This document shows, one piece after another, positions 40,201 through 55,694 of a stretch of 64,000 nucleotides of DNA. The position numbers and the translations under genes were made by a program. The stretch comes from Betaproteobacteria bacterium (GTDB lineage: Bacteria; Pseudomonadota; Gammaproteobacteria; Burkholderiales; SG8-41), in NCBI GenBank assembly GCA_016868035.1, contig VGID01000017.1, positions 430 to 64,429 on the forward strand, read 5' to 3'. Below the pieces are notes generated by a model. It was not told the origin of the DNA, did not search any database, and saw only the letters and a list, made by a program, of their open reading frames with translations. Every line of letters starts with the position of its first letter. Within the stretch, counting starts at the first letter, position 1.

Positions 40201-40342
40201 GGGCAATTACTTCAGCACGCCGGTTCCTGCCGGCATGGTATCGAGCATCCTGCGCGAGCCGGGTACCGCAGGCAAGCGCGCCAGCATCCTGGCGTTGCGC
40301 CCGTTGCGTGACGGCGAGCGCGGGCAGGAATTTGAGTCCTGA
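37250..40342 (+). CDS. Multidomain c-di-GMP signalling protein: membrane sensor, triplicated coiled-coil linker, PAS, GAF, GGDEF, EAL
   Basis: About 6 N-terminal TM helices. PAS (LEALIEASPLAIVVRDTEGRVEKWNAAAQRMLGW), GAF (VIQTLCEGLGYVYGARWIL), GGDEF (YDPLTGLFNRG..GGDEFVVLI) and EAL (EFVLLYQPKV..EFTE..DDFGTGFSSLNYLKRLPVDGVKID). Confidence 0.85.
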   Translation: MVERATGEQIYAEQVRQLYRLSRPAYVAALINAGIITFALWDLVSNVLLAAWFAVMLGVTGARYFLYRAYSRAAPREEQAPVWGDRFVYGTGAMGLLWGFVGSALYPAASIPHQFLVIFLIGGMALSGMVVLAPVRQAFLAYALPSLALVTATVFTQGTNLHLFMGVLLVVMLGVLLATSPIISEMMRESLRAQFENAGLVEQLSASNRELSERAMRESLRAKFENAELVKQLSEANRELSERAMRESLHAKFENAGLVEQLSAANRELSERIVAQQHAEEVLGQTSKRLEALIEASPLAIVVRDTEGRVEKWNAAAQRMLGWTEQEVLGRLAPLLPPGREQEAPCNRERILRGEAFSDVETVRMRKDGTAVSVRMSAAPVYDSAGKPVSYITMLTDVTERKHTEQRQNLENAVTLLLAEAQSMEEVMPRVIQTLCEGLGYVYGARWILDNKERVLRCAESWCVPDTAVEDFRRVSAGRVEVPGMPGGLNRRVWATSAPYWIADLGQELTLRRALEAGLQNAFALPILAGGEFYGVMEFFGRGTRPRDEHVLEIANTVGMQIGQFVGRKQAETNLQFFASYDPLTGLFNRGIFNQRLQQALAQAQRFARSLAVLFIDLDGFKFVNDTLGHSAGDIVLTEVAARLRATLREGDIIARMGGDEFVVLIEEFEGAPQVAEVAKKILETVARPFALHNHDYTLTASLGISTFPEDGSDAQTLLKNADIAMYRAKDDGKNNFRFFAPEMNVHLIERLSLENDLRRAVERGEFVLLYQPKVGVRDGQVSGVEALVRWQHPAQGMIGPSEFVPVAEDAGLMAVIGEWVLHTACRQVQAWREQGLPLVRMAVNLSLRQLAHENLIQVVRGALHQYAVDPDRLELEFTEAMVMRNPDRAEKLLVQLEELGVRLVIDDFGTGFSSLNYLKRLPVDGVKIDRSLIHHLLHDAGAVALTRAVIAMAHSLDISVVAEGVETRAQWEFLQQLGCEEMQGNYFSTPVPAGMVSSILREPGTAGKRASILALRPLRDGERGQEFES
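37808..38068 (+). repeat. 3 x 87-bp in-frame tandem repeat (29-aa units) inside the signalling-protein linker
   Basis: Units start at 37808, 37895 and 37982 and are about 90% identical at the nucleotide level. They encode MRESLRAQFENAGLVEQLSASNRELSERA / MRESLRAKFENAELVKQLSEANRELSERA / MRESLHAKFENAGLVEQLSAANRELSERI. Confidence 0.9.
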
Positions 40343-42816: not shown

Positions 42817-43959
42817 ATGCCGCAATCCGTTGTCACGTCGGCCGGGGTTCCTCGTGTCGTTGTCGGCGCCGGCGCGGACGGCTCGGCGCAGGTAAAGCTA
42901 TCGGGTCCCTGGAACCTGGCGGGGCTCGAAAAGCATCTGTCCGATATCGCGCCGCTGCTCGCCAAACAGGCGGGCGCGAACCGGCACTGGGATCTCAGCG
43001 GGGTGAGCACGCTCGATCACGCCGGGGCGCTGCTGCTGTGGCGCGCGTGGGGCAGGAAACGTGCGCCGCGGCTCACGTTGAAGCCCGAGCACGAGACGCT
43101 GTTCGTTACGCTTGCCGCGGCGCGGCACGAGCCGCTGCCGGGGCTCCCGCGCGACTGGCGTGCGTCGACGGCCGCCGTGGGCCGGAAGATCCTGGCGCTG
43201 CTCGAACATTTGTTCGCGGCCACGGTGCTGCTCGGCCACGTGGTCATCGACGCGATGATCTTGGTGCGCCATCCGGGCCGCATCCCGTGGCGCGAGATTT
43301 CCGCGAACATCTACCGCACCGGCGCGCAGGCGCTCGGTATCACTGCGCTGGTGGGGTTTCTGGTGGGGATCGTGCTTTCGTACCTTTCCGCGCAGCAGCT
43401 CAAGATTTTCGGCGCCGACGTCTACATCGTGAACCTGCTCGGCGTCTCCATCGTCCGCGAGCTCGGGCCGGTGCTCGCGGCCGTGCTGATCGCGGGACGC
43501 TCGGGATCGGCGATCACCGCGCAGCTCGGAGTGATGCGGGTGACCGAGGAAATCGATGCGATGACGGTGATGGGCATTCCCCACACGGTGCGGCTCATCC
43601 TGCCCAAGATGGTGGCGCTTGCCGTCACGCTGCCGCTGATCGTGCTGTGGACGGGCGCGCTTGCGCTGCTCGGTGGCATGATCGCGGCGAACATCGAGCT
43701 CGACATCAGCTACCACTTTTTCCTGTCACGCCTGCCCGACGTGGTGCCGATCTCCAACCTCTGGCTGGGGTTGGGCAAGAGCGTGGTATTCGGTATCCTG
43801 ATCGCGCTCATCGCCTGCCATTTCGGCCTGCGCATCGAGCCCAACACGGAGAGCCTCGGCGCGGGCACCACGGAGTCCGTGGTCAGCGCGATTACGATGG
43901 TGATCATCGTGGACGCGATATTCGCAGTGATGTTTTCACACATAGGAATTTTCCGGTGA
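42817..43959 (+). CDS. MlaE-family ABC transporter permease with N-terminal STAS-like domain
   Basis: The N-terminal ~110 aa are STAS-like (VKLSGPWNLAGLEKHL..WDLSGVSTLDHAGALLL). Then YLSAQQLKIFGADVYIVNLLGVSIVRELGPVLAAVLIAGRSGSAITAQLGVMRVTEEIDAM. Confidence 0.85.
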   Translation: MPQSVVTSAGVPRVVVGAGADGSAQVKLSGPWNLAGLEKHLSDIAPLLAKQAGANRHWDLSGVSTLDHAGALLLWRAWGRKRAPRLTLKPEHETLFVTLAAARHEPLPGLPRDWRASTAAVGRKILALLEHLFAATVLLGHVVIDAMILVRHPGRIPWREISANIYRTGAQALGITALVGFLVGIVLSYLSAQQLKIFGADVYIVNLLGVSIVRELGPVLAAVLIAGRSGSAITAQLGVMRVTEEIDAMTVMGIPHTVRLILPKMVALAVTLPLIVLWTGALALLGGMIAANIELDISYHFFLSRLPDVVPISNLWLGLGKSVVFGILIALIACHFGLRIEPNTESLGAGTTESVVSAITMVIIVDAIFAVMFSHIGIFR

Positions 43960-44777
43960 CCGAACAGGTCGTTGAAGTGAACGGGCTGTGGACGCGGTTC
44001 GGCAGGCATGCCGTGCATCGTGGCATCGATGTGTCGGTGGCGCGCGGCGACGTGCTGTCGCTGGTCGGCGGTTCGGGCAGCGGCAAGACGACGCTGTTGC
44101 GGCAGATGATGGGGCTCGAGCGGCCCTCGCGGGGATCGGTGCGCGTGCTCGGGGTGGATCTCCACGACTGCGACCCGCTCGTCCTGCGCCAGCTCAGGAA
44201 CCGGTGGGGCGTGCTGTTCCAGGAAGGGGCGCTGTTCTCCGCGCTCACCGTATTCGAGAATGTGGCGCTTCCGCTGGAGGAGCTGCACGCGCTCGACGAG
44301 GAGCTGATCCGCGAGCTCGTGATGATGAAGCTCGACATGGTGGGGATCGAGGCGCGCCACGCCCGCAAGGTCCCGGCCGAGCTTTCGGGCGGGATGGTAA
44401 AGCGCGTGGCGCTCGCGCGCTCGCTCGCGCTCGAGCCGGAGCTCCTGTTTCTAGACGAGCCGACGGCGGGGCTCGACCCCGACCGCAGCGAGAGCTTCGT
44501 GCGGCTGATCGAGCAGCTGCGGCACGAGCTGAACCTCACCGTGGTGATGGTCACGCACGACCTCGACACGCTGGTCGCGCTGTCGAACCGCATCGCGGTG
44601 CTGTTCGACGGAAGACTGGTGGTGGTCGGAACCCTGCGCGAAGTCGTGCACAGCCAGCACCCTTTCATCGTGAACTTCTTCCTGGGCGAGCGCGGCCGCC
44701 GCGCGCTCGAAGCGGTGTGGGATACTCTGGGCATGGGGGAAGCCGGCATGCGGCCCGCAACGCAGGGGGGCGCCTGA
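43956..44777 (+). CDS. ABC transporter ATP-binding protein (MlaF-like)
   Basis: GTGA overlap with the upstream gene. Walker A GGSGSGKTT, signature LSGGMVKRVALARSL, Walker B LLFLDEPTAGLDP. Confidence 0.9.
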   Translation: MTEQVVEVNGLWTRFGRHAVHRGIDVSVARGDVLSLVGGSGSGKTTLLRQMMGLERPSRGSVRVLGVDLHDCDPLVLRQLRNRWGVLFQEGALFSALTVFENVALPLEELHALDEELIRELVMMKLDMVGIEARHARKVPAELSGGMVKRVALARSLALEPELLFLDEPTAGLDPDRSESFVRLIEQLRHELNLTVVMVTHDLDTLVALSNRIAVLFDGRLVVVGTLREVVHSQHPFIVNFFLGERGRRALEAVWDTLGMGEAGMRPATQGGA

Positions 44778-44781
44778 GCGT

Positions 44782-45723
44782 ATGGAAAACAAGGCCTACG
44801 CCTTCGCGGCAGGGGTATTCACGCTGCTGCTCGTCGCCGGCGTGGTGTTCGCGGCGATGTGGCTCACCGGCGAGACCGAGGCGCGCTACCGCTACGTGCT
44901 CGAAACACGCCACCCGGTCACGGGGCTCACCCTGCAGGCGCCTGTACGCTACCGCGGGGTCGACGTGGGCAAGGTCGAGGGAATCGACTTCAACGAAAGG
45001 GATCCGCGTACCATTCTGATCCGCGTGGCGGTGCGCACCGAAACGCCGGTCACGAAGGGCACCTACGCGCAGCTCGCCTCGCAGGGCGTGACTGGATTGG
45101 CTTTCGTGCTGCTGGACGATGACGGGTCGAGCCCCGAGCGCCTCCTTCCCGCACGTGATGCACGCATACCGGTACGACAGTCCTTTTTCGACGAGCTGTC
45201 CGGCGCGGGCACGAGCCTCATGTCCGATGTGAACGAGGCGGTGCGGCGCCTGAACGCGCTGCTCGGGGAGAAGAACCAGGCCCAGCTGCTGCGCACGCTC
45301 GCCACGGTGGACGCGGCGAGCACGCGCATCGGCGAGATCGCGGTCAAGGTGCAGCCCGCCCTGCAGGGCGTGGCGCCGCTCACGGACGACGCGCGCAAGG
45401 CGCTGGCCGCGGCCGAAACGCTGTTCGCGAACATGAACCGGCTCACCCACGAGCTCGCGCAGCGCCTGGACGCGCTCGAGCGCATCGCGAAGAGCGCGGA
45501 AGAGTTCGGGAGCGCGGCGCGTTCCGTTACGGGCGCGATGACGGCCGACACGCTGCCCCGCATCAATGCGGTGGTCGATGAGCTCGCGCGCAGCGCGCGC
45601 AACCTGGACCGCCTGCTCACCGAGTTGAACGAGCACCCGGCGAGTCTCGTATTCGGCAGGCCCCAGGCGCCGCCCGGTCCGGGTGAGGCCGGCTTCGATC
45701 CGAAACGGGGGGGTGGCAAGTGA
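44782..45723 (+). CDS. MCE/MlaD-family substrate-binding membrane protein
   Basis: N-terminal TM helix, then GLTLQAPVRYRGVDVGKVEGIDFN..ILIRVAV...PVTKGTYAQLASQGVTGLAFVLL (MCE domain) and a helical C-terminal extension. Confidence 0.85.
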   Translation: MENKAYAFAAGVFTLLLVAGVVFAAMWLTGETEARYRYVLETRHPVTGLTLQAPVRYRGVDVGKVEGIDFNERDPRTILIRVAVRTETPVTKGTYAQLASQGVTGLAFVLLDDDGSSPERLLPARDARIPVRQSFFDELSGAGTSLMSDVNEAVRRLNALLGEKNQAQLLRTLATVDAASTRIGEIAVKVQPALQGVAPLTDDARKALAAAETLFANMNRLTHELAQRLDALERIAKSAEEFGSAARSVTGAMTADTLPRINAVVDELARSARNLDRLLTELNEHPASLVFGRPQAPPGPGEAGFDPKRGGGK

Positions 45724-46376
45724 ACGCGACACGAACGATCCATATGGCGGGCGCGGGGCTGCTCGCGGGGCTGCTCGCGCTCGCGGGCTGCGCGCTGGGG
45801 CCGCAGGCGCGCGAAGCGCCGGTCGTCTATGACCTCGGCCCGCCACGCGGTTATCCGGCGGTCAATCCGCCGCTTGCGGCGCCTTTGTTGATCCCGGTCG
45901 TGGCCGCGCCCGCCTGGCTGGAAACGAACGGCATCGTGTATCGCCTTGCGTTTCAGGACCCGGCGCGCACCCAGTTCTACTCCGCGGCCCGTTGGGCGGC
46001 GCCGCCCGCGGCTCTGCTCACGCAGCAGTTGCGCGGCCGCTTCGCGGCGGCTTCCGCGAGCGGGGTCGTGACCGGTCACGGCGGCGCCCGCGCCGATTAT
46101 GCCCTGCATGTCGAGCTGGAGGACTTCAGCCAGACGTTCGATACGCCCGGCGCGAGCCGCGTCGTGGTGAGGGCGCGGGCGACTCTGGTGGACCTGGCCA
46201 CCCGCACGCTGGTCGCGCAACGCGGTTTTGGCGTCGAGCGCGCGGCTCCCAGCGCCGATGCGCGCGGCGCGGTCGCCGCGTTCGGGGAAGCGAGCGACGA
46301 ACTTGCGCGGGGCCTGCTCGCCTGGACCGGCGAACAGATTTCCGGCGCGCGCCGCAAGCCCGGGGCGGGCAGATAG
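45720..46376 (+). CDS. ABC-transport auxiliary lipoprotein (PqiC/DUF330-like)
   Basis: GTG start overlapping the upstream stop. Lipobox LLALAGC. Size and position after an MCE gene fit the PqiC-like family. Confidence 0.65.
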   Translation: MNATRTIHMAGAGLLAGLLALAGCALGPQAREAPVVYDLGPPRGYPAVNPPLAAPLLIPVVAAPAWLETNGIVYRLAFQDPARTQFYSAARWAAPPAALLTQQLRGRFAAASASGVVTGHGGARADYALHVELEDFSQTFDTPGASRVVVRARATLVDLATRTLVAQRGFGVERAAPSADARGAVAAFGEASDELARGLLAWTGEQISGARRKPGAGR

Positions 46377-46385
46377 GAGACGAGC

Positions 46386-46724
46386 GTGAGCACTATTTTT
46401 GGCAAGATCATCCGACGCGAAATCCCCGCCGACATCGTCTACGAGGACGAGCAGTGCCTCGCGTTTCGAGACATCAATCCGCAGGCGCCCACGCACGTGC
46501 TGATCATCCCCAGGAAGGAGATCTCCACGCTCGGAGACGCCGGTGTCGGGGACCGCGATCTTCTCGGACACCTCGTGCTCGCGGCCGCGAAAATCGCGTG
46601 CCAGCTCGGGGTGGAAAAAGCGTTCCGGCTGGTCATCAACAACGGCGCGGAGGCGGGACAGAGCGTGTTCCACCTGCACCTGCACCTGCTCGCGGGCCGC
46701 CCCTTCCGCTGGCCGCCGGGCTAG
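46386..46724 (+). CDS. HIT-family (histidine triad, HinT-like) nucleotide hydrolase
   Basis: IFGKIIRREIPADIVYEDEQCLAFRDINPQAPTHVLIIPRK and the triad HLHLHLL. Confidence 0.9.
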   Translation: MSTIFGKIIRREIPADIVYEDEQCLAFRDINPQAPTHVLIIPRKEISTLGDAGVGDRDLLGHLVLAAAKIACQLGVEKAFRLVINNGAEAGQSVFHLHLHLLAGRPFRWPPG

Positions 46725-48847
46725 GCCCTGTCCGATTTCCTGGGGCCTGGCTCGAGCCGGCGCGTCAGTTCGCGCGGGGGCTGCGGCTTCCCGAACAGGT
46801 AGCCCTGCGCTTCGTGGCAGCCTTTCGCCCGGAGAAAGGCGAGCTGTGCGGGCGTCTCCACGCCCTCGGCGACCACTCTCTTGCCCAGGGTATGCCCCAG
46901 GCCGATGATGGCTTCGCAGATCGCATCGGCGTTGGAATCGCGCCCGATGTGGTCGACGAACGACTTGTCGATCTTGATCGAATCCACGTCCAGCTTGCGC
47001 AGGTAGCTCAGGGAGGAATAGCCCGTGCCGAAGTCGTCGATCGAGATTTGCAAGCCGAGCCCGCGCAGCGCGGTGAGTATCGAGATGCTGAGCTCGACAT
47101 CGTCCATCGCCACCGATTCGGTGATCTCGAGCTCGAGCAGCCCGGGCCCGATATCGCTGCGCGCGAGCGCTCCGCGCACGTAATCCAGCAGCCGCGGATC
47201 CCGGAACTGCTGGGCGGAGAGGTTCACCGCCACGCGCGGCGGCGCGTAGCCCTCGTCGGACCACAGCCGGACCTGGCGGCACGCTTCGCGCAGCGCCCAT
47301 TCCCCGATCGGGCTGATCAAGCCCGTCGTTTCGGCCACCGGGATGAAGCGCACGGGTGAGACCTGTCCCCAGTGCGGGTGCGGCCAGCGGATCAGCGCTT
47401 CGCAGCCAGCGAGGGTCTCGCTGCTTCCGGCGATCGCCACCTTCGGCTGGTAGACGAGATGGAACGCGCGCTGCTCGACCGCCGTGCGCAGCTCCTGTTC
47501 GATCTCCTGGCGCTCCCGCGCCTCTTCGGCCATCGCGGGCGAGAAGAACTGGTAGCGCACTCGAGTGTCCCGCCGGATCCGGCTCAGGGCAAGCTCGGCT
47601 TCGTGGAGCATCTGCTGCGGCGTCGAGCATCCGGTGGCGGTGGTCGTGATCCCGATCCGGCCTTTCAACCGGACTTCCTTGTCTTCCACAGTTATCGGCT
47701 CCGCAATGCGCGCGAGCAGGCGCTCGGCCTGGCGTGCCGAATCGACCGCGCTGCGCACCTTGGCCCGCGCTACCCCGAATTCGTCGCCTTCGAGGCGCGC
47801 GACGAATTCCTCGCGGCCCATCGCCTCGCCGAGACGCCGGGCAATCTCCGTGAGGACCTTGTCTCCGGCGGCCTGCCCGAGTCCGTCATTCACGGCACGG
47901 AACCCGGAAAGATTGAGCACGGTGACTTCGATGCTCTCGCCGCGCTCGCAAGTGCCCGACAGGACCTGCTGCAGGTGCTCGAGGAAGAACTTGCGGTTGG
48001 GCAGTCCGGTCAGCGCGTCGTGGTGGGCGAGGAACCGCGCGTGCTCCTCGGCGCGCAGGCGGTCGGTGCGCTTGCTTTCGGCGACCCGCGTGAGCATTTC
48101 GTCGTGGGCGGAGAACAGCTCCCCGAGCTCGTTACCCGGGCGCGACCCGATCCGGTGGCGATCAGCCACGTCGGGGTCGGCGGCCGCCGCGACCATGCTG
48201 CCCCGCAGCCGGAGGATCGGGGCGAGCACCCCGCGGTAGACCACGATCATGGTTCCGGTGGTGACCACGGCGACGATCAACAGCACGAGCCCGGCGATGC
48301 GCAGCACGAACGCCCGCAACTCGGCGCCGACGTGGGAGCTGTCCAGGCGTGCGAGGAGGAGCCGCGGCTCGCCGGACATGTCCGCACGCCATGCAATGTC
48401 GTAGCGGTTCCCGTCGCCGCTGCGGTGTCTGAGCCTATTGCCGGGATCCTGCAACATCCGGTCGAGCCCGACATCGAGCGATGCCAGCTCGCCGGCACTC
48501 ACCAGTTCCGAGCCATCGGGGTGCCGCACCGCGAGTCCCACGAACAGGGGCTGCTCGACCAGCTTCCGCACCTGGTGCGCCAGCAGGTCCGGGCGTTGCG
48601 CATCGTCGAGGGCAAGCGCTGCGCGCACGGCCGCCGTTGCCTTGTCTTCAAGCCGCTGCAGCTCGGTATGCTCGAAGTTGAGCGCCGACGGGACCAGGAT
48701 GATGCTTTCGATGATGAGAATCAGCAGAAATACCGAGTAGGTAACGGACCGGCAGAGGCGGCATGCGAGCAGGCGCTGCCCCAGCGTGCCGTGCCCGGCC
48801 CGCGACGGCTCTTCCGGCCCGATCATCGATTGCGTGCTCTCACTCAA
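46721..48847 (-). CDS. Sensor protein: TM, periplasmic domain, HAMP, GGDEF, EAL
   Basis: Two TM segments flank a ~150-aa loop. HAMP (VYRGVLAPILRLRGSM), GGDEF-like (HDALTGLPNRKFF..LEGDEFGVA) and EAL (AFHLVYQPKV..EITES..DDFGTGYSSLSYLRKLDVDSIKIDKSF). Confidence 0.85.
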   Translation of the reverse strand: MSESTQSMIGPEEPSRAGHGTLGQRLLACRLCRSVTYSVFLLILIIESIILVPSALNFEHTELQRLEDKATAAVRAALALDDAQRPDLLAHQVRKLVEQPLFVGLAVRHPDGSELVSAGELASLDVGLDRMLQDPGNRLRHRSGDGNRYDIAWRADMSGEPRLLLARLDSSHVGAELRAFVLRIAGLVLLIVAVVTTGTMIVVYRGVLAPILRLRGSMVAAAADPDVADRHRIGSRPGNELGELFSAHDEMLTRVAESKRTDRLRAEEHARFLAHHDALTGLPNRKFFLEHLQQVLSGTCERGESIEVTVLNLSGFRAVNDGLGQAAGDKVLTEIARRLGEAMGREEFVARLEGDEFGVARAKVRSAVDSARQAERLLARIAEPITVEDKEVRLKGRIGITTTATGCSTPQQMLHEAELALSRIRRDTRVRYQFFSPAMAEEARERQEIEQELRTAVEQRAFHLVYQPKVAIAGSSETLAGCEALIRWPHPHWGQVSPVRFIPVAETTGLISPIGEWALREACRQVRLWSDEGYAPPRVAVNLSAQQFRDPRLLDYVRGALARSDIGPGLLELEITESVAMDDVELSISILTALRGLGLQISIDDFGTGYSSLSYLRKLDVDSIKIDKSFVDHIGRDSNADAICEAIIGLGHTLGKRVVAEGVETPAQLAFLRAKGCHEAQGYLFGKPQPPRELTRRLEPGPRKSDRA

Positions 48848-49215
48848 ATGAACTCTCGTGGTCCACGTTCTGCCGTGTCCAAAAAAGTATACGCTTTGTC
48901 ACCGGTTGCAGGTATGCCGTATGCCACTATACGAAATGTGTTTGCGCCGATCGCGCGCAAGACGGTTCTGACGATTCGGGATCGCGCGGGCCGCACCTGC
49001 GATGGTCGTGTGAAGAGCTTGTAAGATTATGGGCGATTTGCCGGTCTTATCAATGTGGCGACCGGATCGGCCGAGGAGGCCGCGCGCAGAACGACGTTTC
49101 CGGCGGAGTTTTGCGCGTACGCTTCGGATACCGGGCGCCGGTGCATAGTTCTGCCTGTCGGGCGAAGTCCGGAGAGGAGTCCGCCTGGTTTTTTTCTTCA
49201 ACAAGGAGGTTCCGA

Positions 49216-50007
49216 ATGCAACTTGAACTCAAGCCCGTAGCCCGATCGCTCGCTTCGGCCGGTCTGCTGACGTTGGCACTGGGGATGCCCTTCGCGGCGG
49301 CCGGCGCATGTCGGCCCTGTGCCCCGCGGCCAGCACCGAAATCGAGCGCCAATCCATGCGCTGCGAAGAACCCGTGCGCGCCGCGGAACCCGTGTGCCGC
49401 GAAGCGCAATCCGTGCGCGGCGAAGAATCCCTGTGCGCCCAGGAACCCCTGTGCCGCAAAGGGTGCTTGCGGGGCCGGCAAGGTCGATCGGAAGCTCGCG
49501 ACGCGGCCGAAGGATTACAAGCCCTACAAGGCCGATCGCGCGGTCCTGGTCAAGGAAGGCGAGGTGATGTGGAAGGACACCAAGCTCAGCACCAACGGCC
49601 TGTCCTGCAACAGCTGCCACGTGAACAATGCGGGGTTTGCCGCCACGTTCGCGAAACCGTACCCGCATTACGTGGCGATGGCGCAGCAGCAAGCCGGGGT
49701 GAAGCAGGTGCACCTCGACGAGATGGTGCAGTTCTGCATGATCGTTCCGATGGCGGCCAAGCCTCTGGCGTGGGACTCGCGCCAGCTCGCCGCGCTGACC
49801 GCGTACACCGCGGACGTCCAGAAGAAGTTCAAGCCGAATCCATGTGCGGCGAAGAAGGGCGGCCCGTGCGGCCCGTGCGCTCCGAAACGCAATCCGTGCG
49901 CGGCGAAGAATCCGTGCGCGGCGAAGAACCCGTGCGCGGCGAAGAACCCGTGCGCGGCCAAGCGCAATCCGTGCGCGCCCCGGAATCCTTGCGCCCCGAG
50001 GAAGTAG
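49216..50007 (+). CDS. Secreted monoheme c-type cytochrome flanked by N- and C-terminal (N-P-C-A-A/P-K/R)n Cys-rich repeat tails
   Basis: RBS aaggagg then ATG 49216. Signal peptide MQLELKPVARSLASAGLLTLALGMPFAAAGA. Repeat tails at aa 31-88 and 207-263 (9 Cys each). The core carries CNSCH (nt 49606-49620) in the context WKDTKLSTNGLSCNSCH and a distal MIVPM. Confidence 0.7.
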   Translation: MQLELKPVARSLASAGLLTLALGMPFAAAGACRPCAPRPAPKSSANPCAAKNPCAPRNPCAAKRNPCAAKNPCAPRNPCAAKGACGAGKVDRKLATRPKDYKPYKADRAVLVKEGEVMWKDTKLSTNGLSCNSCHVNNAGFAATFAKPYPHYVAMAQQQAGVKQVHLDEMVQFCMIVPMAAKPLAWDSRQLAALTAYTADVQKKFKPNPCAAKKGGPCGPCAPKRNPCAAKNPCAAKNPCAAKNPCAAKRNPCAPRNPCAPRK

Positions 50008-50370
50008 CGCGATTCGTGATACTGGGCCGCGCGGGAAACGGAGATTCGCGCGATTCCGCGCGGGGAGGAAGATAGATTGCGGCGGCGTGGGCCGCCTTGT
50101 TCCCGTCGGGCATGAAACCAAGGTCCGGCTCGCGGCCACCCGGCGAGCCAGCCGGTGCGCCGAGCCGGGCCGCTTGCGACCGGCAGCGGGGTCGCGTATG
50201 GTGGGGAGCAACCGGATTTTCGGAAGCGCCTGCTTCGTGCGAGACTTTCCGCGCCGCAGCGCGTTTTTGGCAGCCTCGATCTGGGAGCAAACGGAAAGTG
50301 GCTATACGGGCAGTGTGGTTCCGTAACCGGGGCTGCATCGCACCCATCGTCTACAAAACGGAGGATCAAC

Positions 50371-50736
50371 ATGCAGTTCCAACTGAGACCCATGGTTCGT
50401 TCACTGATATCGACCGGCATCGTCACGCTCGCTCTGGGCGTGCCCCACGCGCTGGCACAGGCGCCCTGTCGCCCATGTGCGGCGCGGGCGAAATCGGGGG
50501 CCAATCCGTGCGCGGCGAAAAGCCCGTGCGCGCCGAAGAAGAACCCGTGTGCGGCGAAGAAGGCAAGCCCGTGCGCGGCCAAGAAGAAAGCCCCGTGCGG
50601 TCCGTGCGCGGCGAAGAAGGCAAGCCCGTGCGCAGCCCAGAAGAAAGCGAGCCCGTGCGCGCCGAAGAAGAATCCGTGCGCGGCAAAGAAGCCCAATCCG
50701 TGCGCGGCGAAAAATCCCTGCGCGGCGAAGAAGTAG
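50371..50736 (+). CDS. Secreted 121-aa protein consisting almost only of x-P-C-A-A/P-K(K) repeats (paralog of the cytochrome's tails)
   Basis: RBS ggagg then ATG 50371. The signal peptide MQFQLRPMVRSLISTGIVTLALGVPHALAQA is clearly paralogous to that of 49216. The mature part has 13 Cys, every one preceded by Pro, and is Lys-rich with no His, Met or aromatic residues. Confidence 0.6.
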   Translation: MQFQLRPMVRSLISTGIVTLALGVPHALAQAPCRPCAARAKSGANPCAAKSPCAPKKNPCAAKKASPCAAKKKAPCGPCAAKKASPCAAQKKASPCAPKKNPCAAKKPNPCAAKNPCAAKK

Positions 50737-50740
50737 CCGC

Positions 50741-51673
50741 ATGAGCGCCGTGCCGCCGCGCGCAGGGAGTGGCGCCGGCAGCACGGCGCGCCAGACCCGG
50801 TCCGGGGCCGCATCGAGAGCCCCCGGCGCCGGAAGCCAGGCGCGCGAAACCCGGCGCGCAGCGAAGCTCGCGAATGCAGCGATGAAATCCGCGCCCGCCA
50901 TCCCGGCGCAGCAGGTGGAAGGGCCGGAAGCATTGCTTGCGGCCTCACCGCAGCTCGCCCCTCCCGCGCTCGCCGCGCTGGGCAAGCGGCGGTTGCGTGC
51001 GATGCTCGCCGAAGGCCTCGACATCCTCGAGTGCTTCCGCGTGCTCAAGAAGGGCGGTCTCAACATCGTGGGCGAAGTGCTGCGGGGGCAGGGCACGTTT
51101 TACGAGTACACGCATTACCCGCAGGACGACGTCTACGACCGGGACACCCGCTCGCAGTATTACTATCATGCCCATCGCGGGATGGCTGGAGAAAACGGCC
51201 ATTTCCACACCTTCATCCGGTTGCCGCGCGAGCCGCGTCCGGCCTCCGCAGCGCATGATGCGGCGGACGACCCGGACGCCGCGGACGAGGACGAAGCGGT
51301 TCACCTGGTGGCGATCTCGATGGACGCGTACGGCTGGCCGATCGGACTGTTCGCGACCAACCGCTGGGTGACGGGAGGCGGTTGGCTTGCCGCCGAGGAG
51401 ACCATCGGGCTGCTGCCCGAGTTCTGCGTCGACCACGCGGATCCGTCATGGCCGGTCAACCGCTGCCTGAGCGCCATGTTCGGCTTGTTCCGGCCGCACA
51501 TGGAGATGCTGCTCCGCCACCGCGATGGCGTGATTGCCGCGCGCGCGGCGGCCCTGCCCGGGAGCGACGTGCTCGAGGACCGCGAGCTTGAGATCACCGG
51601 CTATCTGCCGGTCTCGGTCGAAGAGACGGTCGCGGAGTTGCGCGCGCTTCTGGGCAAGGATGGACGCGGATGA
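50741..51673 (+). CDS. Conserved hypothetical protein with a His/Tyr-rich motif (possibly a DUF6969-type family; unverified)
   Basis: ATG 50741 lies 4 nt after the previous stop. The N-terminal region is low complexity with no signal peptide, then LNIVGEVLRGQGTFYEYTHYPQDDVYDRDTRSQYYYHAHRGMAGENGHFHTFIR. Start uncertain (alternatives include MKSAP.. and MLAEG..). Confidence 0.55.
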   Translation: MSAVPPRAGSGAGSTARQTRSGAASRAPGAGSQARETRRAAKLANAAMKSAPAIPAQQVEGPEALLAASPQLAPPALAALGKRRLRAMLAEGLDILECFRVLKKGGLNIVGEVLRGQGTFYEYTHYPQDDVYDRDTRSQYYYHAHRGMAGENGHFHTFIRLPREPRPASAAHDAADDPDAADEDEAVHLVAISMDAYGWPIGLFATNRWVTGGGWLAAEETIGLLPEFCVDHADPSWPVNRCLSAMFGLFRPHMEMLLRHRDGVIAARAAALPGSDVLEDRELEITGYLPVSVEETVAELRALLGKDGRG

Positions 51674-52152
51674 TCGCCTCGCGCCCGCGGACACGATGGG
51701 CATGGCTCGGAGCAGCGTTCGCGCTGTGCGCGCTGCTCCCGGCGCTCGCGCAGGCGCCGCTGCCGGGGACGCGGACGATCGCAACCAAGCACTCCTTCGA
51801 GGCTTTGGTCGCACGCGTGGAGCAGGCGGTCGATAAGCACGGCATGGCGGTGGTTGCCCACGCGAGCGCGAGCTCCGGGGCCGCATCACGCGGCATCAAG
51901 ATCCCCGGCAATGCGGTGATCATGGTGTTCCGCAACGACTACGCCGTGCGCATGCTGCAGGCGAGCGTGCCGGCGGGCATCGAGGCGCCGCTGCGAATCC
52001 ACGTGACCGAAACTCCCGGCGGCCGCGCCACGCTGACCTATCGGGAGCCGAGCGCGGTGTTCGCGCCCTACGCAAGCCCGGCGCTCGATGCCGTGGCAAA
52101 GGAGCTGGATGTCGTATTCCGCAACATCGTCCGCGACGCGGCCGGCGGCTGA
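51670..52152 (+). CDS. DUF302 domain protein with signal peptide
   Basis: ATGA overlap with the upstream gene. Signal peptide ..LCALLPALAQA. FEALVARVEQAVDKHGMAVVAH...GNAVIMVFRNDYAVRML..EAPLRIHV is typical of DUF302. Confidence 0.8.
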   Translation: MIASRPRTRWAWLGAAFALCALLPALAQAPLPGTRTIATKHSFEALVARVEQAVDKHGMAVVAHASASSGAASRGIKIPGNAVIMVFRNDYAVRMLQASVPAGIEAPLRIHVTETPGGRATLTYREPSAVFAPYASPALDAVAKELDVVFRNIVRDAAGG

Positions 52153-52165
52153 GCGCGCCGGTGGT

Positions 52166-53308
52166 ATGGCGCCGGCGCGCGCGCAGCGCGGCGTGCTGGC
52201 GGCGGCGCTCGCGCTCGCGGTCGTGATCCTCGTGCTGATCACGGGCGCGGGCTGGCGCATGCCCGTGTTGTTCGCATTGGGCATCGCGCTCGGACTCACG
52301 CTCTATCTCACCGGGTTCGGTTTTACCTCGTCGTACCGCGAATTGCTTGTGCATCGCAACGTCGCTGCGGTGAAGGCGCAGCTGGTGATGGTGGCGCTCG
52401 CTACCGTGCTGTTTGCGCCGGTGCTCGCGGGCGGCTCGGTCTTCGGGCAACCGGTGGCAGGAGCGCTGGCCCCCGCGGGCGTGCCGGTGGCGATCGGTGC
52501 CTTTCTCTTCGGGCTGGGCATGCAACTCGGCGGCGGCTGCGGCTCGGGAACGCTCTACACCGCGGGCGGGGGCAGTCCGCGCATGCTGGTGGTGCTCGCC
52601 GCGTTCTGCGCGGGCGGCTTCTGGGCGAGCCTGCACATGCAGTGGTGGGACCGCCTGCCCGCAGCGCCCGATGTCGCGCTGTCCGACCTGCTCGGCTGGC
52701 CGGGCGCGGTCGCGCTGCAGCTCGGCGTGCTGGCGGTGTTGTGGCTTGCGCTCGGCCGGGTGGCGCGTCGCGGGGCGCGTTCGACCCAGGACGTGCCCTC
52801 GTTCCTGGCGCAGCGCCATTTCTGGCTGGCGGGCGCGATCGCACTCGCGCTGCTGAACTTTTCCGTGCTGCTTGCCGCGGGCCACCCGTGGACCATCACC
52901 TGGGCGTTCACTCTCTGGGGCGCCAAATCGGCGCGCGGGCTGGGATGGGATCCGGAGTCGGCGCCGTTCTGGAGCGGCGACTTCCAGCGCACGGCGCTCG
53001 AAGGCGGCGTGCTGCAGGACGTCACCTCGGTGATGGACATCGGCATCATGATCGGCGCGCTGGCGGCGGCGGGTCTCGCGGCGCGTTTCCGCCCGCAATT
53101 CACGGTGCCGATGCGATCGCTGCTCGCCGCGGTCGTTGGCGGGCTGCTGATGGGTTATGGGGCGCGCGTCGCCTTCGGATGCAACATCGGCGCGTTTTTC
53201 TCGGGTGTGGCATCCACCAGCCTGCACGGGTGGATGTGGATCTTCGCGGCGCTCGCGGGCACCTGGTTCGGAATAAGGATGAGGCCATGGTTCGGACTGA
53301 AAAATTGA
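52166..53308 (+). CDS. YeeE/YedE-family membrane protein (putative thiosulfate/sulfur-compound transporter)
   Basis: ATG 52166 within ORF 52088-53308. Two half-repeats carry the Cys motifs LGGGCGSGTLY and AFGCNIGAFF that are characteristic of YeeE/YedE. Confidence 0.8.
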   Translation: MAPARAQRGVLAAALALAVVILVLITGAGWRMPVLFALGIALGLTLYLTGFGFTSSYRELLVHRNVAAVKAQLVMVALATVLFAPVLAGGSVFGQPVAGALAPAGVPVAIGAFLFGLGMQLGGGCGSGTLYTAGGGSPRMLVVLAAFCAGGFWASLHMQWWDRLPAAPDVALSDLLGWPGAVALQLGVLAVLWLALGRVARRGARSTQDVPSFLAQRHFWLAGAIALALLNFSVLLAAGHPWTITWAFTLWGAKSARGLGWDPESAPFWSGDFQRTALEGGVLQDVTSVMDIGIMIGALAAAGLAARFRPQFTVPMRSLLAAVVGGLLMGYGARVAFGCNIGAFFSGVASTSLHGWMWIFAALAGTWFGIRMRPWFGLKN

Positions 53309-54432
53309 TCGGCAGGGCACGCGTCGCGATGGCGGCGGCTTTGCTCGCGTTTGCGGCGGATGCGGCTGCGAACCCGCAGTGGCGCGGGGAGTGGCCGCGG
53401 ACGGACTTCTCCAAACGTACCGTTGCGCTCGAGGAGATCCAGTCGGGCGGCCCGCCCAAGGACGGCATACCCGCGGTGGACCAGCCACGTTTCGTGACGC
53501 AGGCCGAGGCGGCGCGCTGGCTCGACCCGCGCGAGCCCGTGATCGTCTTCGAGCACGCAGGCGACGTGCGCGCGTATCCGCTGCAGATCCTGACGTTCCA
53601 CGAGATCGTGAACGACACGGTCGGCGGAATTCCGGTGGCGGTCACGTTCTGCCCGCTCTGCAACGCCTCCATCGTCTTCGACCGGCGGATGCAGGGAGCC
53701 GTGCTCGATTTCGGAACGACGGGCAAGCTGCGCAAGAGCGACCTCGTGATGTACGATCGGCAGACCGAGAGCTGGTGGCAGCAGTTCACCGGCCAGGGCA
53801 TCGTCGGCCGGCATGCCGGCACGGTGCTCACTCAGGTGCCTTCGACCATCGTCGCGTTCGATGAATTTCGCAAGGCCTATCCGAAGGCGCAAGTGCTCTC
53901 GCGGCAGACCGGCTTCAGCCGTCCGTACGGCAGGAATCCCTACCGCGGCTACGACCGCGTGGGCGATCATCCCTTCCTGTTCTTCGATCCGGTGGACCCG
54001 CGCCTGCCCGCGATGGAGCGGGTGCTGGGCGTCACGAGCGGGGGCAAGACGCGCATCTATCCGTTCGCGGTGCTCTCCGGGCAACCGGTGGTGAACGACG
54101 AGGTGGGCGGCGAGCCGATCGCCGTGTTCAGCCAGGAAGGGATGCTCTCCGTGCTCGACGCGGAGGTGATACGGGACTCACGGCGCATCCCCGCGGCGGC
54201 CGCCTACAGCCGCGCGGTGCGCGGCAAGGTGCTCTCCTTCGAGCGCCGCGACCACCGTATCGTGGATCGCGAGACCGGCTCGCAATGGGACATCTTCGGC
54301 CGCGCGACCGCGGGCCCATTGCAGGGCGCGAGGCTCAAACCGGCGGACAGCGGCGTGCATTTCGCGTTCGCATGGCTCGCGTTCCATCCCGGGTCCGAAA
54401 TTTACGGCAGCACGGGGGTGGCGCGACGCTAG
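53287..54432 (+). CDS. DUF3179 domain protein, secreted, with CPLC motif
   Basis: ATG 53287 overlaps yeeE by 22 nt. Signal peptide ..AAALLAFAADAAA. GGPPKDGIPAVDQPRF, AYPLQILTFHEIVND and VAVTFCPLCNASIVFDR are DUF3179 hallmarks. Confidence 0.8.
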   Translation: MVRTEKLIGRARVAMAAALLAFAADAAANPQWRGEWPRTDFSKRTVALEEIQSGGPPKDGIPAVDQPRFVTQAEAARWLDPREPVIVFEHAGDVRAYPLQILTFHEIVNDTVGGIPVAVTFCPLCNASIVFDRRMQGAVLDFGTTGKLRKSDLVMYDRQTESWWQQFTGQGIVGRHAGTVLTQVPSTIVAFDEFRKAYPKAQVLSRQTGFSRPYGRNPYRGYDRVGDHPFLFFDPVDPRLPAMERVLGVTSGGKTRIYPFAVLSGQPVVNDEVGGEPIAVFSQEGMLSVLDAEVIRDSRRIPAAAAYSRAVRGKVLSFERRDHRIVDRETGSQWDIFGRATAGPLQGARLKPADSGVHFAFAWLAFHPGSEIYGSTGVARR

Positions 54433-54444
54433 CGCCGGTAAGTT

Positions 54445-54987
54445 TTGGCCCGCAACGCCGGTCTTACTATTTCGATGCTGCTGGAGAACAAACGCTCGCG
54501 ATTCGAAAGCCTGGTGAAGGCATTCTCGGCGGAGCTGTTTCGCTACGCTCACTGGCTGTGCCGCGACCGTTTCCTTGCAGAGGATCTGGTGCAGGAGACG
54601 TTCATGCGCGCGTGGCACGCCTGGGCAGGGTTGAGGGATGACAAGGCCGCGCGAAGCTGGCTCTACACGATACTGCGCAACGAGCATGCGCGGCTCTACG
54701 AGCGCAAGCGCCTCGATATCGCCGCCGGCTTCGATCTGGATGCCATCGCGGATCGCACCGCGGGACTTGCCGATCAGCGGCTGGAGATGCGCGAGGCCCT
54801 CGAATCCCTGCCCGGCAGCTACCGCGAGCCGTTGATATTGCAGGTGCTCGGCGGTTTCAGTTGCGCTGAGATCGCAGGGATCATGGATTTGAGCATGGGC
54901 GCGGTCATGACGCGCCTCACCCGCGCGCGGCTTGCATTGCGCAGGCTGCCGGGATGGGAACGCACACGCAAGGTTGGGAAGCGATGA
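54445..54987 (+). CDS. ECF-type RNA polymerase sigma-70 family factor
   Basis: Region 2 (AEDLVQETFMRAWHAW..SWLYTILRNE) and region 4 (YREPLILQVLGGFSCAEIAGIMDLSMGAVMTRLTRAR). The start may be ATG 54475. Confidence 0.85.
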   Translation: MARNAGLTISMLLENKRSRFESLVKAFSAELFRYAHWLCRDRFLAEDLVQETFMRAWHAWAGLRDDKAARSWLYTILRNEHARLYERKRLDIAAGFDLDAIADRTAGLADQRLEMREALESLPGSYREPLILQVLGGFSCAEIAGIMDLSMGAVMTRLTRARLALRRLPGWERTRKVGKR

Positions 54988-55694
54988 CTTGTTTCGAATT
55001 TCGAAGGCTGATACTCGCGAGTCCGCGCGAGCGCAGCGCCGCCCAGGAGCAGCACAAGGCGGCGTGTGCCGCGTGCGCCGCGCTCGCGCGCGAGATGGAC
55101 AATTTCGAGTCGCGCATCCATGAGGCCGCGCTCGTGCCGATGCCCGAAGCGCTCGCGGAGCGGGTGCTGCTGCGAGGGCAAGTCGAGCGGCAACGCAGCA
55201 GGCTGCGCGTGTGGGCGTTCGCGGCCACCGTGATGCTCGCGCTGGGTCTCGGGCTCGTGCTGGTGCGCGACGAGACGGCGCCGCCGGATGGCGTGCGGAG
55301 CGCGGCTGCGCTGGGCGAAGCGCATCCCGCCGTGGCGGCGATATCGTACGTGATTGACGAGGAGCCGCGCCTGCTCGCGGAGAACCGATTTTTCGATCCG
55401 GCAGCGATGCGCCAGGCACTGGCGGATCTCGGCCTGAATCTTCCGGCAGAAAACGTGGCGGTGCGCTATCTGGGCAAGTGCCCGGTGCCCGGAGGCAGCG
55501 GAGAGCACGTCGTGCTCACGACGCCGTTCGGCCAGGTCTCGCTCATCCTTGTTCCGGACCTGCCGTTCGGCCCGCGCGTGCTGGTGTGGCACCGCGACCG
55601 GGCGGCGCTCGCGAGAGCGCAGCGCGCCGGCGGTTACATTCTCGTCGGCGATACGGTCGCGACCGTCACGCAGCTCGAAAAGCTGCTGCTGTAG
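54984..55694 (+). CDS. Membrane anti-sigma factor (DUF3379-like) with HxxxCxxC zinc/redox motif
   Basis: ATGA overlap with the sigma gene. N-terminus MTCFEFRRLILASPRERSAAQEQHKAACAACAALAREM contains H-x3-C-x2-C. A single TM helix (VWAFAATVMLALGLGLVLV) is followed by a periplasmic C-terminal domain. Confidence 0.7.
   Translation: MTCFEFRRLILASPRERSAAQEQHKAACAACAALAREMDNFESRIHEAALVPMPEALAERVLLRGQVERQRSRLRVWAFAATVMLALGLGLVLVRDETAPPDGVRSAAALGEAHPAVAAISYVIDEEPRLLAENRFFDPAAMRQALADLGLNLPAENVAVRYLGKCPVPGGSGEHVVLTTPFGQVSLILVPDLPFGPRVLVWHRDRAALARAQRAGGYILVGDTVATVTQLEKLLL

Follow-up and report, generated by a model that had tools for sequence, protein, structure and literature searches.

What would a bacterium gain from exporting proteins made of little but cysteine-bearing hexapeptide repeats? 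The question is raised by eight consecutive genes (g1 to g8) in a 64-kb stretch of betaproteobacterial DNA (contig VGID01000017.1, GC ~68%; the window), which encode a secreted cytochrome with such repeats as tails, a secreted protein of repeats only, and six further proteins. An original prediction, made from the letters of the DNA, had proposed an undescribed envelope module that handles thiols, metals or sulfur. As judged from sequence comparison, the cluster is real, conserved and undescribed, and a shared promoter motif points to co-regulation. We read it tentatively, with slightly less than even confidence, as a periplasmic poly-thiol buffer or redox relay against thiophilic stress, induced by an extracytoplasmic function (ECF) sigma factor.

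An operon built around cysteine-repeat proteins

ORF calling in the window gave an operon of eight open reading frames (ORFs), all on the + strand, at 49216-55694, with domains assigned by Pfam:

49216-50007, +: g1, 263 aa, secreted monoheme c-type cytochrome with NPCAAK-type tails on both sides of the heme core; GGAGG ribosome-binding site (RBS)
50008-50370, +: g1-g2 spacer, 363 nt, GC-rich
50371-50736, +: g2, 121 aa, secreted repeat-only protein; GGAGG RBS
50741-51673, +: g3, DUF6969 (PF22308, E 5e-73)
51670-52152, +: g4, secreted DUF302 protein (PF03625)
52166-53308, +: g5, YeeE/YedE-family membrane protein (Sulf_transp, PF04143, E 8e-62)
53287-54432, +: g6, DUF3179, secreted or membrane-anchored (PF11376, E 4e-104)
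54445-54987, +: g7, ECF sigma factor (Sigma70_r2 and r4_2); TTG start
54984-55694, +: g8, DUF3379 anti-sigma factor (PF11859, E 4e-25)

Every ORF and junction of the predicted same-strand arrangement was reproduced at its coordinates: from g2 onward, g2-g3, g4-g5 and g6-g7 are separated by gaps of 4, 13 and 12 nt, g5 and g6 overlap by 22 nt, and g3-g4 and g7-g8 each share an ATGA overlap. Pfam agrees with the domains first named for g1 and g4 to g8 and places g3 in DUF6969, and the motifs CNSCH, GGGCGSG, FGCNIG, CPLC and HKAACAAC are all present. All junctions after the g1-g2 spacer are tight. The spacer contains a weak terminator-like hairpin (50250-50263) and no second ECF motif; we rejected a regulatory RNA or terminator there, since Rfam returned no match and the fold z-score, only -1.4, is unremarkable. 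No convincing terminator was found inside the g1-g8 cluster.

The mature g1 protein contains 21 Cys and 40 Lys plus Arg (pI 9.7), and its tails hold nine Cys each and no acidic residue; mature g2 has 91 aa with 13 Cys, 22 Lys plus Arg and no Asp or Glu (pI 9.9). Repeat units such as NPCAAK and NPCAPR place most cysteines singly, 6-8 residues apart. CxxC pairs are scarce, one or two per repeat protein, located directly after the signal peptide and mid-protein, and the clustered CxC/CxxC arrangement of metallothioneins is not found in g1 or g2. We rejected the idea that the first Cys behind the signal peptide marks a lipoprotein, as the preceding residue is usually Pro. Profile searches, proposed as a check with the original prediction and made here against Pfam and NCBIfam, returned no family for g2 or the g1 tails, and literature searches, the repeat string itself included, found no description of the repeats; the view that these proteins lie outside any characterised family thus held. 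Literature searches on DUF3179, DUF6969, DUF3379 and their Pfam accessions gave nothing on this system, and those on DUF302, copper, mercury and YedE gave passing mentions only. Despite its low complexity, g2 retrieved 79 cluster representatives at E<=1e-3, and g2-equivalent genes adjoin DUF6969 in other loci. In other proteins (P0376, P0382), NPC-type repeats also stand on both sides of a core that looks YceI-like by eye, and ahead of a C-terminal domain that we read as OmpA-like; the repeat appears to be a portable periplasmic module.

The module in other genomes

A scan of one genome per species yielded 567 matches to g1, a lower bound for the species that have a relative. The best species-level matches, at ~70% identity, are metagenome-assembled genomes (MAGs) of groundwater Betaproteobacteria; other carriers include Gallionella, Sideroxydans, Ferrigenium, Methylotenera, Rhodoferax, Thauera, Pseudomonas/Stutzerimonas, Hahella, tubeworm endosymbionts and a Rokuibacteriota MAG. 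Among 90% clusters g1 has 1157 relatives, the best 61% identical and none with a name more specific than "cytochrome c peroxidase" or "c-type cytochrome". The tail-core-tail architecture runs throughout an alignment of 26 g1 homologues. Within 10 kb of the cytochrome gene, in 89 loci annotated with the window's own proteins, the following recur:

DUF6969: 78/89 loci
YeeE: 53/89 loci
DUF302: 42/89 loci
repeat-only secreted protein: 34/89 loci, with 12 more in a second cluster
DUF3179: 31/89 loci
unannotated secreted 150-aa protein: 31/89 loci
second sigma factor (TIGR02943 family, with a small zf-HC2 anti-sigma): 31/89 loci
C92 peptidase: 28/89 loci
g7-like ECF sigma factor: 25/89 loci
DUF3379: 23/89 loci

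Whether the neighbourhood is conserved had been posed as a check on the cluster; in this survey the repeat protein, DUF6969, DUF302, YeeE, DUF3179 and the ECF-DUF3379 pair do co-occur, as a genuine conserved unit. In Betaproteobacteria the genes usually run (repeat) - cytochrome - DUF6969 - (150-aa protein) - DUF302 - YeeE - DUF3179 - C92 - ECF - DUF3379, and by its gene content the window operon is a typical, slightly reduced copy. We propose that it represents locally a widespread proteobacterial module, whose invariant core would be secreted Lys-rich Cys-repeat proteins, free or as tails on a SoxA-type monoheme cytochrome, together with the cytoplasmic His-rich DUF6969.

Other neighbours bear on the chemistry. 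Thioredoxin and DsbD/CcdA genes lie immediately beside the cytochrome gene in 10 loci, and a TlpA-like redoxin replaces them in 2 more, outlying loci. A MerR-MerF-MerA operon stands beside the module in Gallionella, and CopA/CopB/cupredoxin/CusS-CopR genes lie near it in Zobellella; across the 89 loci the metal-gene neighbours are MerT (7), MerA-like (11), MerR-like (15) and CopA oxidase (5). A rhodanese gene lies next to YeeE in Marinobacter, and no Sox or Dsr family is among the recurrent neighbours, a count made without a SoxX/SoxY-seeded search.

The secreted ~150-aa protein, found between DUF6969 and DUF302 (L003 12074-12544; L006 12249-12704), carries the motifs VIELTQxPCQFLE, NKNVPY-LGFWLRGEG and YSCPLNPTPDYKLVV. 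Pfam and NCBIfam give no match for it, and the window has no copy.

Regulation

The elements from which we read the control of the operon are:

49020-49049, +: ECF-type promoter motif TGTAAG-N16-CGGTCTTA; the g1 start codon follows 167 nt downstream
55053-55076, +: cytoplasmic HxxxCxxC motif of g8 (HKAACAAC)
55209-55265, +: transmembrane (TM) helix of g8
55479-55481, +: periplasmic Cys166 of g8
55506-55508, +: periplasmic His175 of g8

The motif emerged from an unbiased dyad search upstream of cytochrome and repeat genes as TGTAAG(G)-N16-18-CGGTCT / CGACYA / CGTCTA. It occurs once in the window, where 0.01 is expected by chance, with no second copy before g2 or g7. Because the motif is single and no convincing terminator interrupts the cluster, the simplest reading is one transcript with positive autoregulation, a stress operon whose promoter at 49020-49049 would feed back on its own sigma/anti-sigma pair. 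Counted over 86 non-redundant related loci, the motif stands upstream of cytochrome genes (36), repeat genes (19), ECF sigma genes (10), thioredoxin-CcdA/DsbD (8), a DedA-fused MerA-like flavoprotein (4), zf-HC2 anti-sigma genes (4) and the second sigma gene (3); ~36% of 151 matches in 2.75 Mb lie upstream of cytochrome or repeat genes, a small fraction of the sequence.

The sigma domains of g7 (closest NCBIfam model PRK12517), the ATGA-overlapping anti-sigma gene with its HxxxCxxC, and the motif upstream both of the operon and of sigma genes elsewhere are the features of an ECF sigma/ZAS anti-sigma pair. In 24 homologues of g8, H24, C28 and C31 are at least 96% conserved, the periplasmic Cys166 (in Y-G-x-C-P) is invariant, and His175, nine residues on, is 96% conserved; Cys166 and His175 are plausible sensor residues. 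The suggestion that this pair regulates the unit is borne out, as far as promoter placement can tell, by the motif before g1 here and before cytochrome, repeat and sigma genes elsewhere. The theme of periplasmic thiol chemistry, which had also been put forward at the outset, is reinforced by the co-regulated thioredoxin-CcdA pairs and by the invariant periplasmic Cys of the anti-sigma.

In Gammaproteobacteria and Burkholderia the module is accompanied by a TIGR02943-type sigma factor and a small zf-HC2 anti-sigma (L091, L095, L001, L005, L036, L046, L048, L054). The same motif precedes the DedA-fused MerA-like flavoprotein and DUF3047 in gammaproteobacterial loci and a metallophosphoesterase-like gene in two other loci; the strict motif was not found in two Burkholderia plasmid loci (L091, B. 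thailandensis; L095, B. glumae). An ArsS-like radical S-adenosylmethionine (rSAM) enzyme, TIGR04282/TIGR04283 glycosyltransferases and methylthioadenosine (MTA) phosphorylase adjoin the module in both groups. These motif-bearing and adjacent genes look like a larger regulon. We did not adopt the arsenosugar link that ArsS, TIGR04282 and TIGR04283 (a set of which part carries the same motif) bring to mind as the function, as none of the three is in the window.

Redox and transport components

Within g1, g5 and g6 the following parts can be placed:

aa 1-29 of g1, +: signal peptide
49303-49479, +: N-tail of g1
49480-49833, +: heme core of g1
49606-49620, +: heme-attachment motif CNSCH of g1 (aa 131-135); C131, C134 and H135 invariant in 26 homologues
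49735-49737, +: Cys174 of g1 (VQFC), candidate distal heme ligand, invariant in 26 homologues
49834-50004, +: C-tail of g1
52529-52549, +: GGGCGSG, Cys-containing motif of g5
53174-53191, +: FGCNIG, Cys-containing motif of g5
53650-53661, +: CPLC motif of g6; C122 and C125 invariant

The heme domain of g1, with the only CxxCH of the protein, belongs to PF21342 (SoxA/TsdA cytochrome c; E 1.2e-9, 38.4 bits against a gathering cut-off of 27). It is alignable over its full length with the N-terminal heme (heme-1) domain of Rhodovulum SoxA, and TsdA was not among the PDB sequence-search matches. Cys174 aligns with Cys114 of the SoxA chain 1h31_A both in a single-sequence search and with a 26-sequence profile (E 7.5e-4). 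SoxA Cys114 is reported in the SoxAX structure paper to be the distal ligand of SoxA heme 1, and the heme histidines lie at positions 80 and 181 in the same alignment, in keeping with the numbering reported there. His151, invariant in the 26 homologues, and Met179, 90% conserved and not invariant, are alternative ligands. Hemes with His/Cys ligation are reported to have very low potentials (PMC9562282), which would suit them to exchange with thiol/disulfide couples.

Against the NCBIfam equivalogs (YeeE/TsuA, YedE/FdhT) g5 scores 134, 79 and 44 bits, for cut-offs of 350, 400 and 645, and its membership holds at the Pfam family level only; Pfam finds no YeeD/TusA-type partner among the eight genes. 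The motif of DUF3179 corresponds to UxxC/T in selenoprotein forms (PMC9312934). An AlphaFold2 (AF2) model of the domain (pLDDT 82.9) gave a weak, partial match to Rieske-type ferredoxins (E ~0.02, target-normalised TM ~0.5), which we did not use. The one solved structure related to DUF302 is a chain deposited under the name of a putative CrcB fluoride transporter, and DUF302 occurs in a sulfide-detoxification module (PMC6305408).

A second cytochrome, of ~390 aa with five CxxCH and weak ExtKL/MtrC-domain similarity, lies near the module in 15 loci (e.g. L006 11036-12214), and in one of them (L011) its gene has the promoter motif 97 nt upstream.

A periplasmic poly-thiol buffer as the proposed function

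From gene structure, domains, neighbourhood, promoter motif and key residues we infer both a series of biochemical steps and the kind of stressor. The membrane anti-sigma would sense a periplasmic thiol-reactive agent via Cys166/His175 and free the sigma factor, and the poly-cysteine proteins would then be exported in large amounts. Their exposed thiolates, flanked by Lys, would bind or react with the agent, for which the candidates are soft metals (Cu(I), Hg(II), Ag, Cd), thiophilic metalloids and reactive sulfur or oxidant species; the lysines could provide charge balance for metal-thiolate clusters or attract sulfur or metalloid anions. A low-potential heme, probably His/Cys-ligated, the CPLC protein DUF3179 and, elsewhere, thioredoxin-CcdA would trade electrons with the thiols and so keep or reset their redox state. 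The YeeE-type channel may move a small sulfur anion across the inner membrane, feeding cysteine synthesis or removing product, and DUF6969 would act on the repeat proteins before export. As trigger, metals are somewhat favoured over sulfur species, because of the mer and cop neighbours and because no sulfur-oxidation family recurs.

Several points weigh against such a buffer. Metal genes neighbour only a minority of loci and could reflect shared genomic islands, and no mer, cop, thioredoxin or CcdA gene lies near the operon in the window. Single cysteines 6-8 residues apart might form mere disulfides in an oxidising periplasm. Metal binding is a poorer fit than sulfur chemistry for the SoxA-type heme, YeeE and DUF302, the distal ligand of the heme has alternatives in the invariant His151 and the nearly invariant Met179, and DUF3179 has no informative structural match.

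DUF6969 and a possible maturation before export

The gene g3 had been set down as a cytoplasmic His/Tyr-rich hypothetical, a label that undersells it: it encodes DUF6969, the most tightly linked partner of the repeat proteins. The protein is cytoplasmic, has no signal peptide and is His-rich, with six invariant His in the family motifs HYPxDD, YYYHAHR and GHFHTF. Because homologues align only from about residue 70, the true start may be 50882 and not 50741. More than 2000 relatives exist, all unnamed. In an AF2 model (pLDDT 84.7) HxH pairs lie in adjacent predicted beta-strands; there was no significant PDB fold match (best E 0.16) and no PDB sequence match, which leaves the cupin idea suggested by HxH...HxH unsupported.

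In 59/76 cases the gene directly upstream of DUF6969 is a cytochrome or repeat gene, and several DUF6969 gene calls begin with an out-of-frame read of repeat DNA, so tight is the juxtaposition. On a Skermanella plasmid the order is DUF6969 - ANPCAxK-repeat protein - DUF302 - ECF sigma - NrsF. Directly upstream of DUF6969 stand a secreted APCAAG-repeat protein on Sinorhizobium pSymA and a secreted AKCG/AKCA-repeat protein on plasmids of Burkholderia thailandensis and B. glumae, while Ciceribacter has a homologous secreted ORF next to DUF6969 with a YeeE-like ORF upstream of it. Near DUF6969 on both Burkholderia plasmids are thioredoxin, CcdA, sigma plus zf-HC2, MTA phosphorylase, two glycosyltransferases and an rSAM enzyme; DUF6969 shares an operon there with the MTA phosphorylase, the two glycosyltransferases and a flavoprotein, with the rSAM enzyme encoded nearby. 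The B. thailandensis plasmid also carries a DUF692-DUF2063-DoxX set ~7-8 kb from DUF6969, the sole such co-location. In Azospirillum, DUF6969 has no repeat gene nearby; on the B510 plasmid (L090 4240-8711) an orphan DUF6969 gene directly follows an MlaE-MlaF-MlaD-auxiliary operon.

By these neighbourhoods, DUF6969 is the tightest, core partner of the Cys-repeat secreted proteins in alpha-, beta- and gammaproteobacteria. Since it is predicted to be cytoplasmic and yet is faithfully linked to exported proteins, it should either handle them ahead of export or respond to the same ligand, which raises the possibility of a role in their modification or chaperoning before export. The more specific form of this idea is maturation like that of RiPPs (peptides made by the ribosome and modified after translation), in which DUF6969 would be a cytoplasmic metalloenzyme modifying repeat cysteines before Sec export and the product would be a modified metallophore or redox polymer instead of a plain poly-thiol. 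We consider it possible but rather unlikely, and it may coexist with the poly-thiol buffer. The 59/76 placement speaks for it, as does the survival of the pairing when the repeat unit changes (ANPCAxK, APCAAG, AKCG/AKCA); the lack of a signal peptide, the six invariant His and the paired HxH strands would suit such an enzyme, the Burkholderia operon (MTA phosphorylase, glycosyltransferases and flavoprotein, with rSAM nearby) counts in its favour, and published Cys-repeat precursors with Sec signals offer a precedent (PMC12452194). However, neither a catalytic activity nor a relative in fold is known for DUF6969, nothing recognisable as a leader or recognition element turned up, the cytochrome, at 263 aa, would be exceptionally large for a substrate, DUF6969 occurs in Azospirillum with no repeat gene nearby, and DUF6969 is missing within 10 kb in 11/89 cytochrome loci. 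A holdase, chaperone or metal-sensing role explains the linkage equally well. It is likewise possible but rather unlikely that DUF6969 is the founding member of a new cytoplasmic metalloenzyme family that modifies Cys of Sec-exported Lys-rich Cys-repeat proteins, heme-protein tails included.

Sulfur carriage and electron transfer as less likely functions

The operon could instead be a sulfur carrier resembling SoxAX-SoxYZ: the SoxA-type heme would oxidatively charge the cysteines in its tails, and those in the repeat-only protein, with thiosulfate or sulfane sulfur, YeeE would move a sulfur anion, and DUF302 and DUF3179 would process adducts, all for detoxification, storage or assimilation of reduced sulfur. 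The PF21342 match and the invariant Cys aligned with SoxA Cys114 suggest as much, given that hemes of the SoxA family conjugate thiosulfate to a thiolate via a Cys ligand or run the reverse reaction (PMC4423706). YeeE is near the cytochrome in 53/89 loci, in Marinobacter beside a rhodanese; YeeE-like proteins are reported to import sulfur for oxidation and signalling (PMC11582611). DUF302 belongs to a sulfide-detoxification module (PMC6305408), and many carriers of the cytochrome oxidise sulfur or iron (tubeworm endosymbionts, Sedimenticolaceae, Gallionella, Sideroxydans). Even so we judge sulfur carriage unlikely. Envelope stress, and not energy metabolism, is what ECF sigma control typically serves; SoxX, SoxYZ, SoxB and Dsr are absent from the recurrent neighbour families, counted without SoxX/SoxY seeds, and no YeeD/TusA partner is encoded in the operon; the best alignment is to the non-catalytic heme-1 domain of SoxA and not to residues 177-282, its catalytic domain; and the module also occurs in organisms that do not oxidise sulfur (Pseudomonas, Methylotenera, Hahella, rhizobia).

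It is very unlikely that the cytochrome is a redox shuttle held by its basic poly-thiol tails to a surface of anionic or thiophilic character, such as that of metal sulfides, iron minerals, humics or the outer membrane, with the rest of the cluster in support. Enrichment of the module in iron oxidisers and groundwater Betaproteobacteria, and a five-heme cytochrome gene in 15 loci, once with the promoter motif, agree with such a role; the occurrence of the same tails around a YceI-like core and before an OmpA-like domain suggests a portable tether; and EeuP, a different PF21342 cytochrome, is reported to take electrons from humin (PMC12503164). But EeuP, a four-heme protein with a TM helix, lacks the repeats, on which grounds we rejected it as a member of the same family (PMC12503164), no conserved outer-membrane porin partner is present, and the repeat-only protein, DUF6969, the YeeE channel and stress-type regulation are left unexplained.

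That the genes are adjacent by chance, or are non-coding tandem-repeat DNA mis-read as genes, as the 18-nt-period arrays and the lack of a family for g2 might suggest, is scarcely credible, because the neighbourhood recurs across loci in dozens of species and the repeat is kept as protein across phyla, in Beta-, Gamma- and Alphaproteobacteria among others, always with a signal peptide and strong RBS, which marks the arrays as coding, and GC3 of the repeat genes (0.79-0.87) is like that of other window genes.

Comparison with known systems

The bufferins and oxazolins are the closest parallel to the proposed poly-thiol buffer. They are MNIO/DUF692-modified, Sec-exported Cys-rich RiPP metallophores, often under an ECF sigma/anti-sigma pair, that protect the periplasm from copper, with bufferin domains also fused to MerC and to cytochrome c domains (PMC11626156, PMC12452194). 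Oxazolins are Lys-Cys repeat proteins (EGKCG) with up to 58 Cys (PMC12452194). The window operon likewise has small or repeat-built Cys-rich proteins with N-terminal signal-like sequences for Sec (21 Cys in g1, 13 in g2) beside a cytoplasmic partner and under putative ECF control. Unlike those systems it has no DUF692, DUF2063 or DoxX, either in the operon or among recurrent neighbours; its repeat is NPCAAK and not EGKCG or DUF2282, with the Buf_6/12Cys signature judged by Pfam and NCBIfam only; its partner is DUF6969, a fold with no known relative, and modification here is putative; and its anti-sigma is DUF3379 and not NrsF, although the Skermanella locus does use NrsF.

A second parallel is MrpX of Azospira, which in work by Melnyk et al. 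from 2015 is reported to scavenge hypochlorite with MsrP/YedYZ under SigF-NrsF. Both systems would place an abundant secreted peptide rich in one reactive residue under ECF control, as a sacrificial sink with periplasmic regeneration. Here the residue is Cys and not Met, there is no MsrP/MsrQ, and the possible regenerating partners are the heme domain, the CPLC protein and, elsewhere, thioredoxin-CcdA. A further parallel is with the periplasmic reducing pathways, Scs (suppressor of copper sensitivity) and CcdA/DsbD-thioredoxin. Because thioredoxin-CcdA genes stand beside the cytochrome in 10 loci, with the motif in 8, reducing power for periplasmic cysteines may be supplied under the same stress; the window operon itself lacks the thioredoxin-CcdA pair, and the clients would be poly-Cys proteins, which Scs lacks.

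With SoxA/TsdA the operon shares the PF21342 heme domain, here with candidate acceptor thiols in the same polypeptide. It differs in being monoheme, in aligning to the heme-1 domain of SoxA and in its stress-type regulation, and SoxX, a second heme domain and SoxYZ/SoxB are not among the operon genes or recurrent neighbours. The g5 protein resembles the YeeE/TsuA thiosulfate importer, the selenium-related YedE and the SoxT sulfur importers in its Sulf_transp family and two conserved Cys-containing loops (PMC11582611); unlike TsuA/YedE it scores far below the NCBIfam cut-offs and has no YeeD/TusA-type partner in the operon.

Novelty and implications

The general idea of a secreted sink has precedents in bufferins/oxazolins and MrpX; the protein families and the heme-plus-tail architecture are new. 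Five of the eight operon genes fall in domains of unknown function and the two repeat proteins in no family, and yet the module is found in hundreds of species, among them groundwater Betaproteobacteria, iron oxidisers, sulfur-oxidising symbionts and marine Gammaproteobacteria, and on rhizobial and Burkholderia plasmids. The analysis yields a testable system, with a promoter motif, a sigma/anti-sigma pair with a candidate sensory Cys, defined products and cultured carriers. If the operon is a periplasmic thiol buffer, it would join bufferins and MrpX as a third type of sacrificial or chelating envelope protein under ECF control, and would bear on the tolerance of environmental bacteria to copper, mercury and sulfide. 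If DUF6969 matures the repeats, they would form a new RiPP class of periplasmic poly-thiol-derived metallophores or redox polymers with its own ECF regulon, parallel to the MNIO-bufferin-oxazolin systems and unrelated to them in sequence; as an enzyme, DUF6969 would bring new cysteine chemistry and a function for PF22308. With its candidate acceptor thiols on the same chain, a SoxA-type heme of this sort would further serve well as a minimal model of a reaction that has proved difficult to study in SoxAX.

Neighbouring genes

Three further features lie upstream of the operon:

46721-48847, -: GGDEF-EAL protein, 708 aa, transcribed divergently from the operon
42817-46724, +: Mla-type ABC transporter (MlaE, MlaD, auxiliary lipoprotein) and HIT protein
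37250-40342, +: PAS-GAF-GGDEF-EAL protein, 1030 aa, 9 kb upstream

We left the GGDEF-EAL gene and the Mla operon out of the module, as they are syntenic only in the closest relatives. Mla synteny is seen, among the 89 loci, only in L010, L014 and L015, and the adjacency is probably coincidence. Only the closest betaproteobacterial MAGs (L011, L017, L028, L034) have a full-length GGDEF-EAL orthologue at this place, and more distant GGDEF-EAL genes lie near the module in further loci, 17 in all. With the PAS-GAF-GGDEF-EAL gene, the region upstream of the operon is rich in cyclic di-GMP (c-di-GMP) turnover genes.

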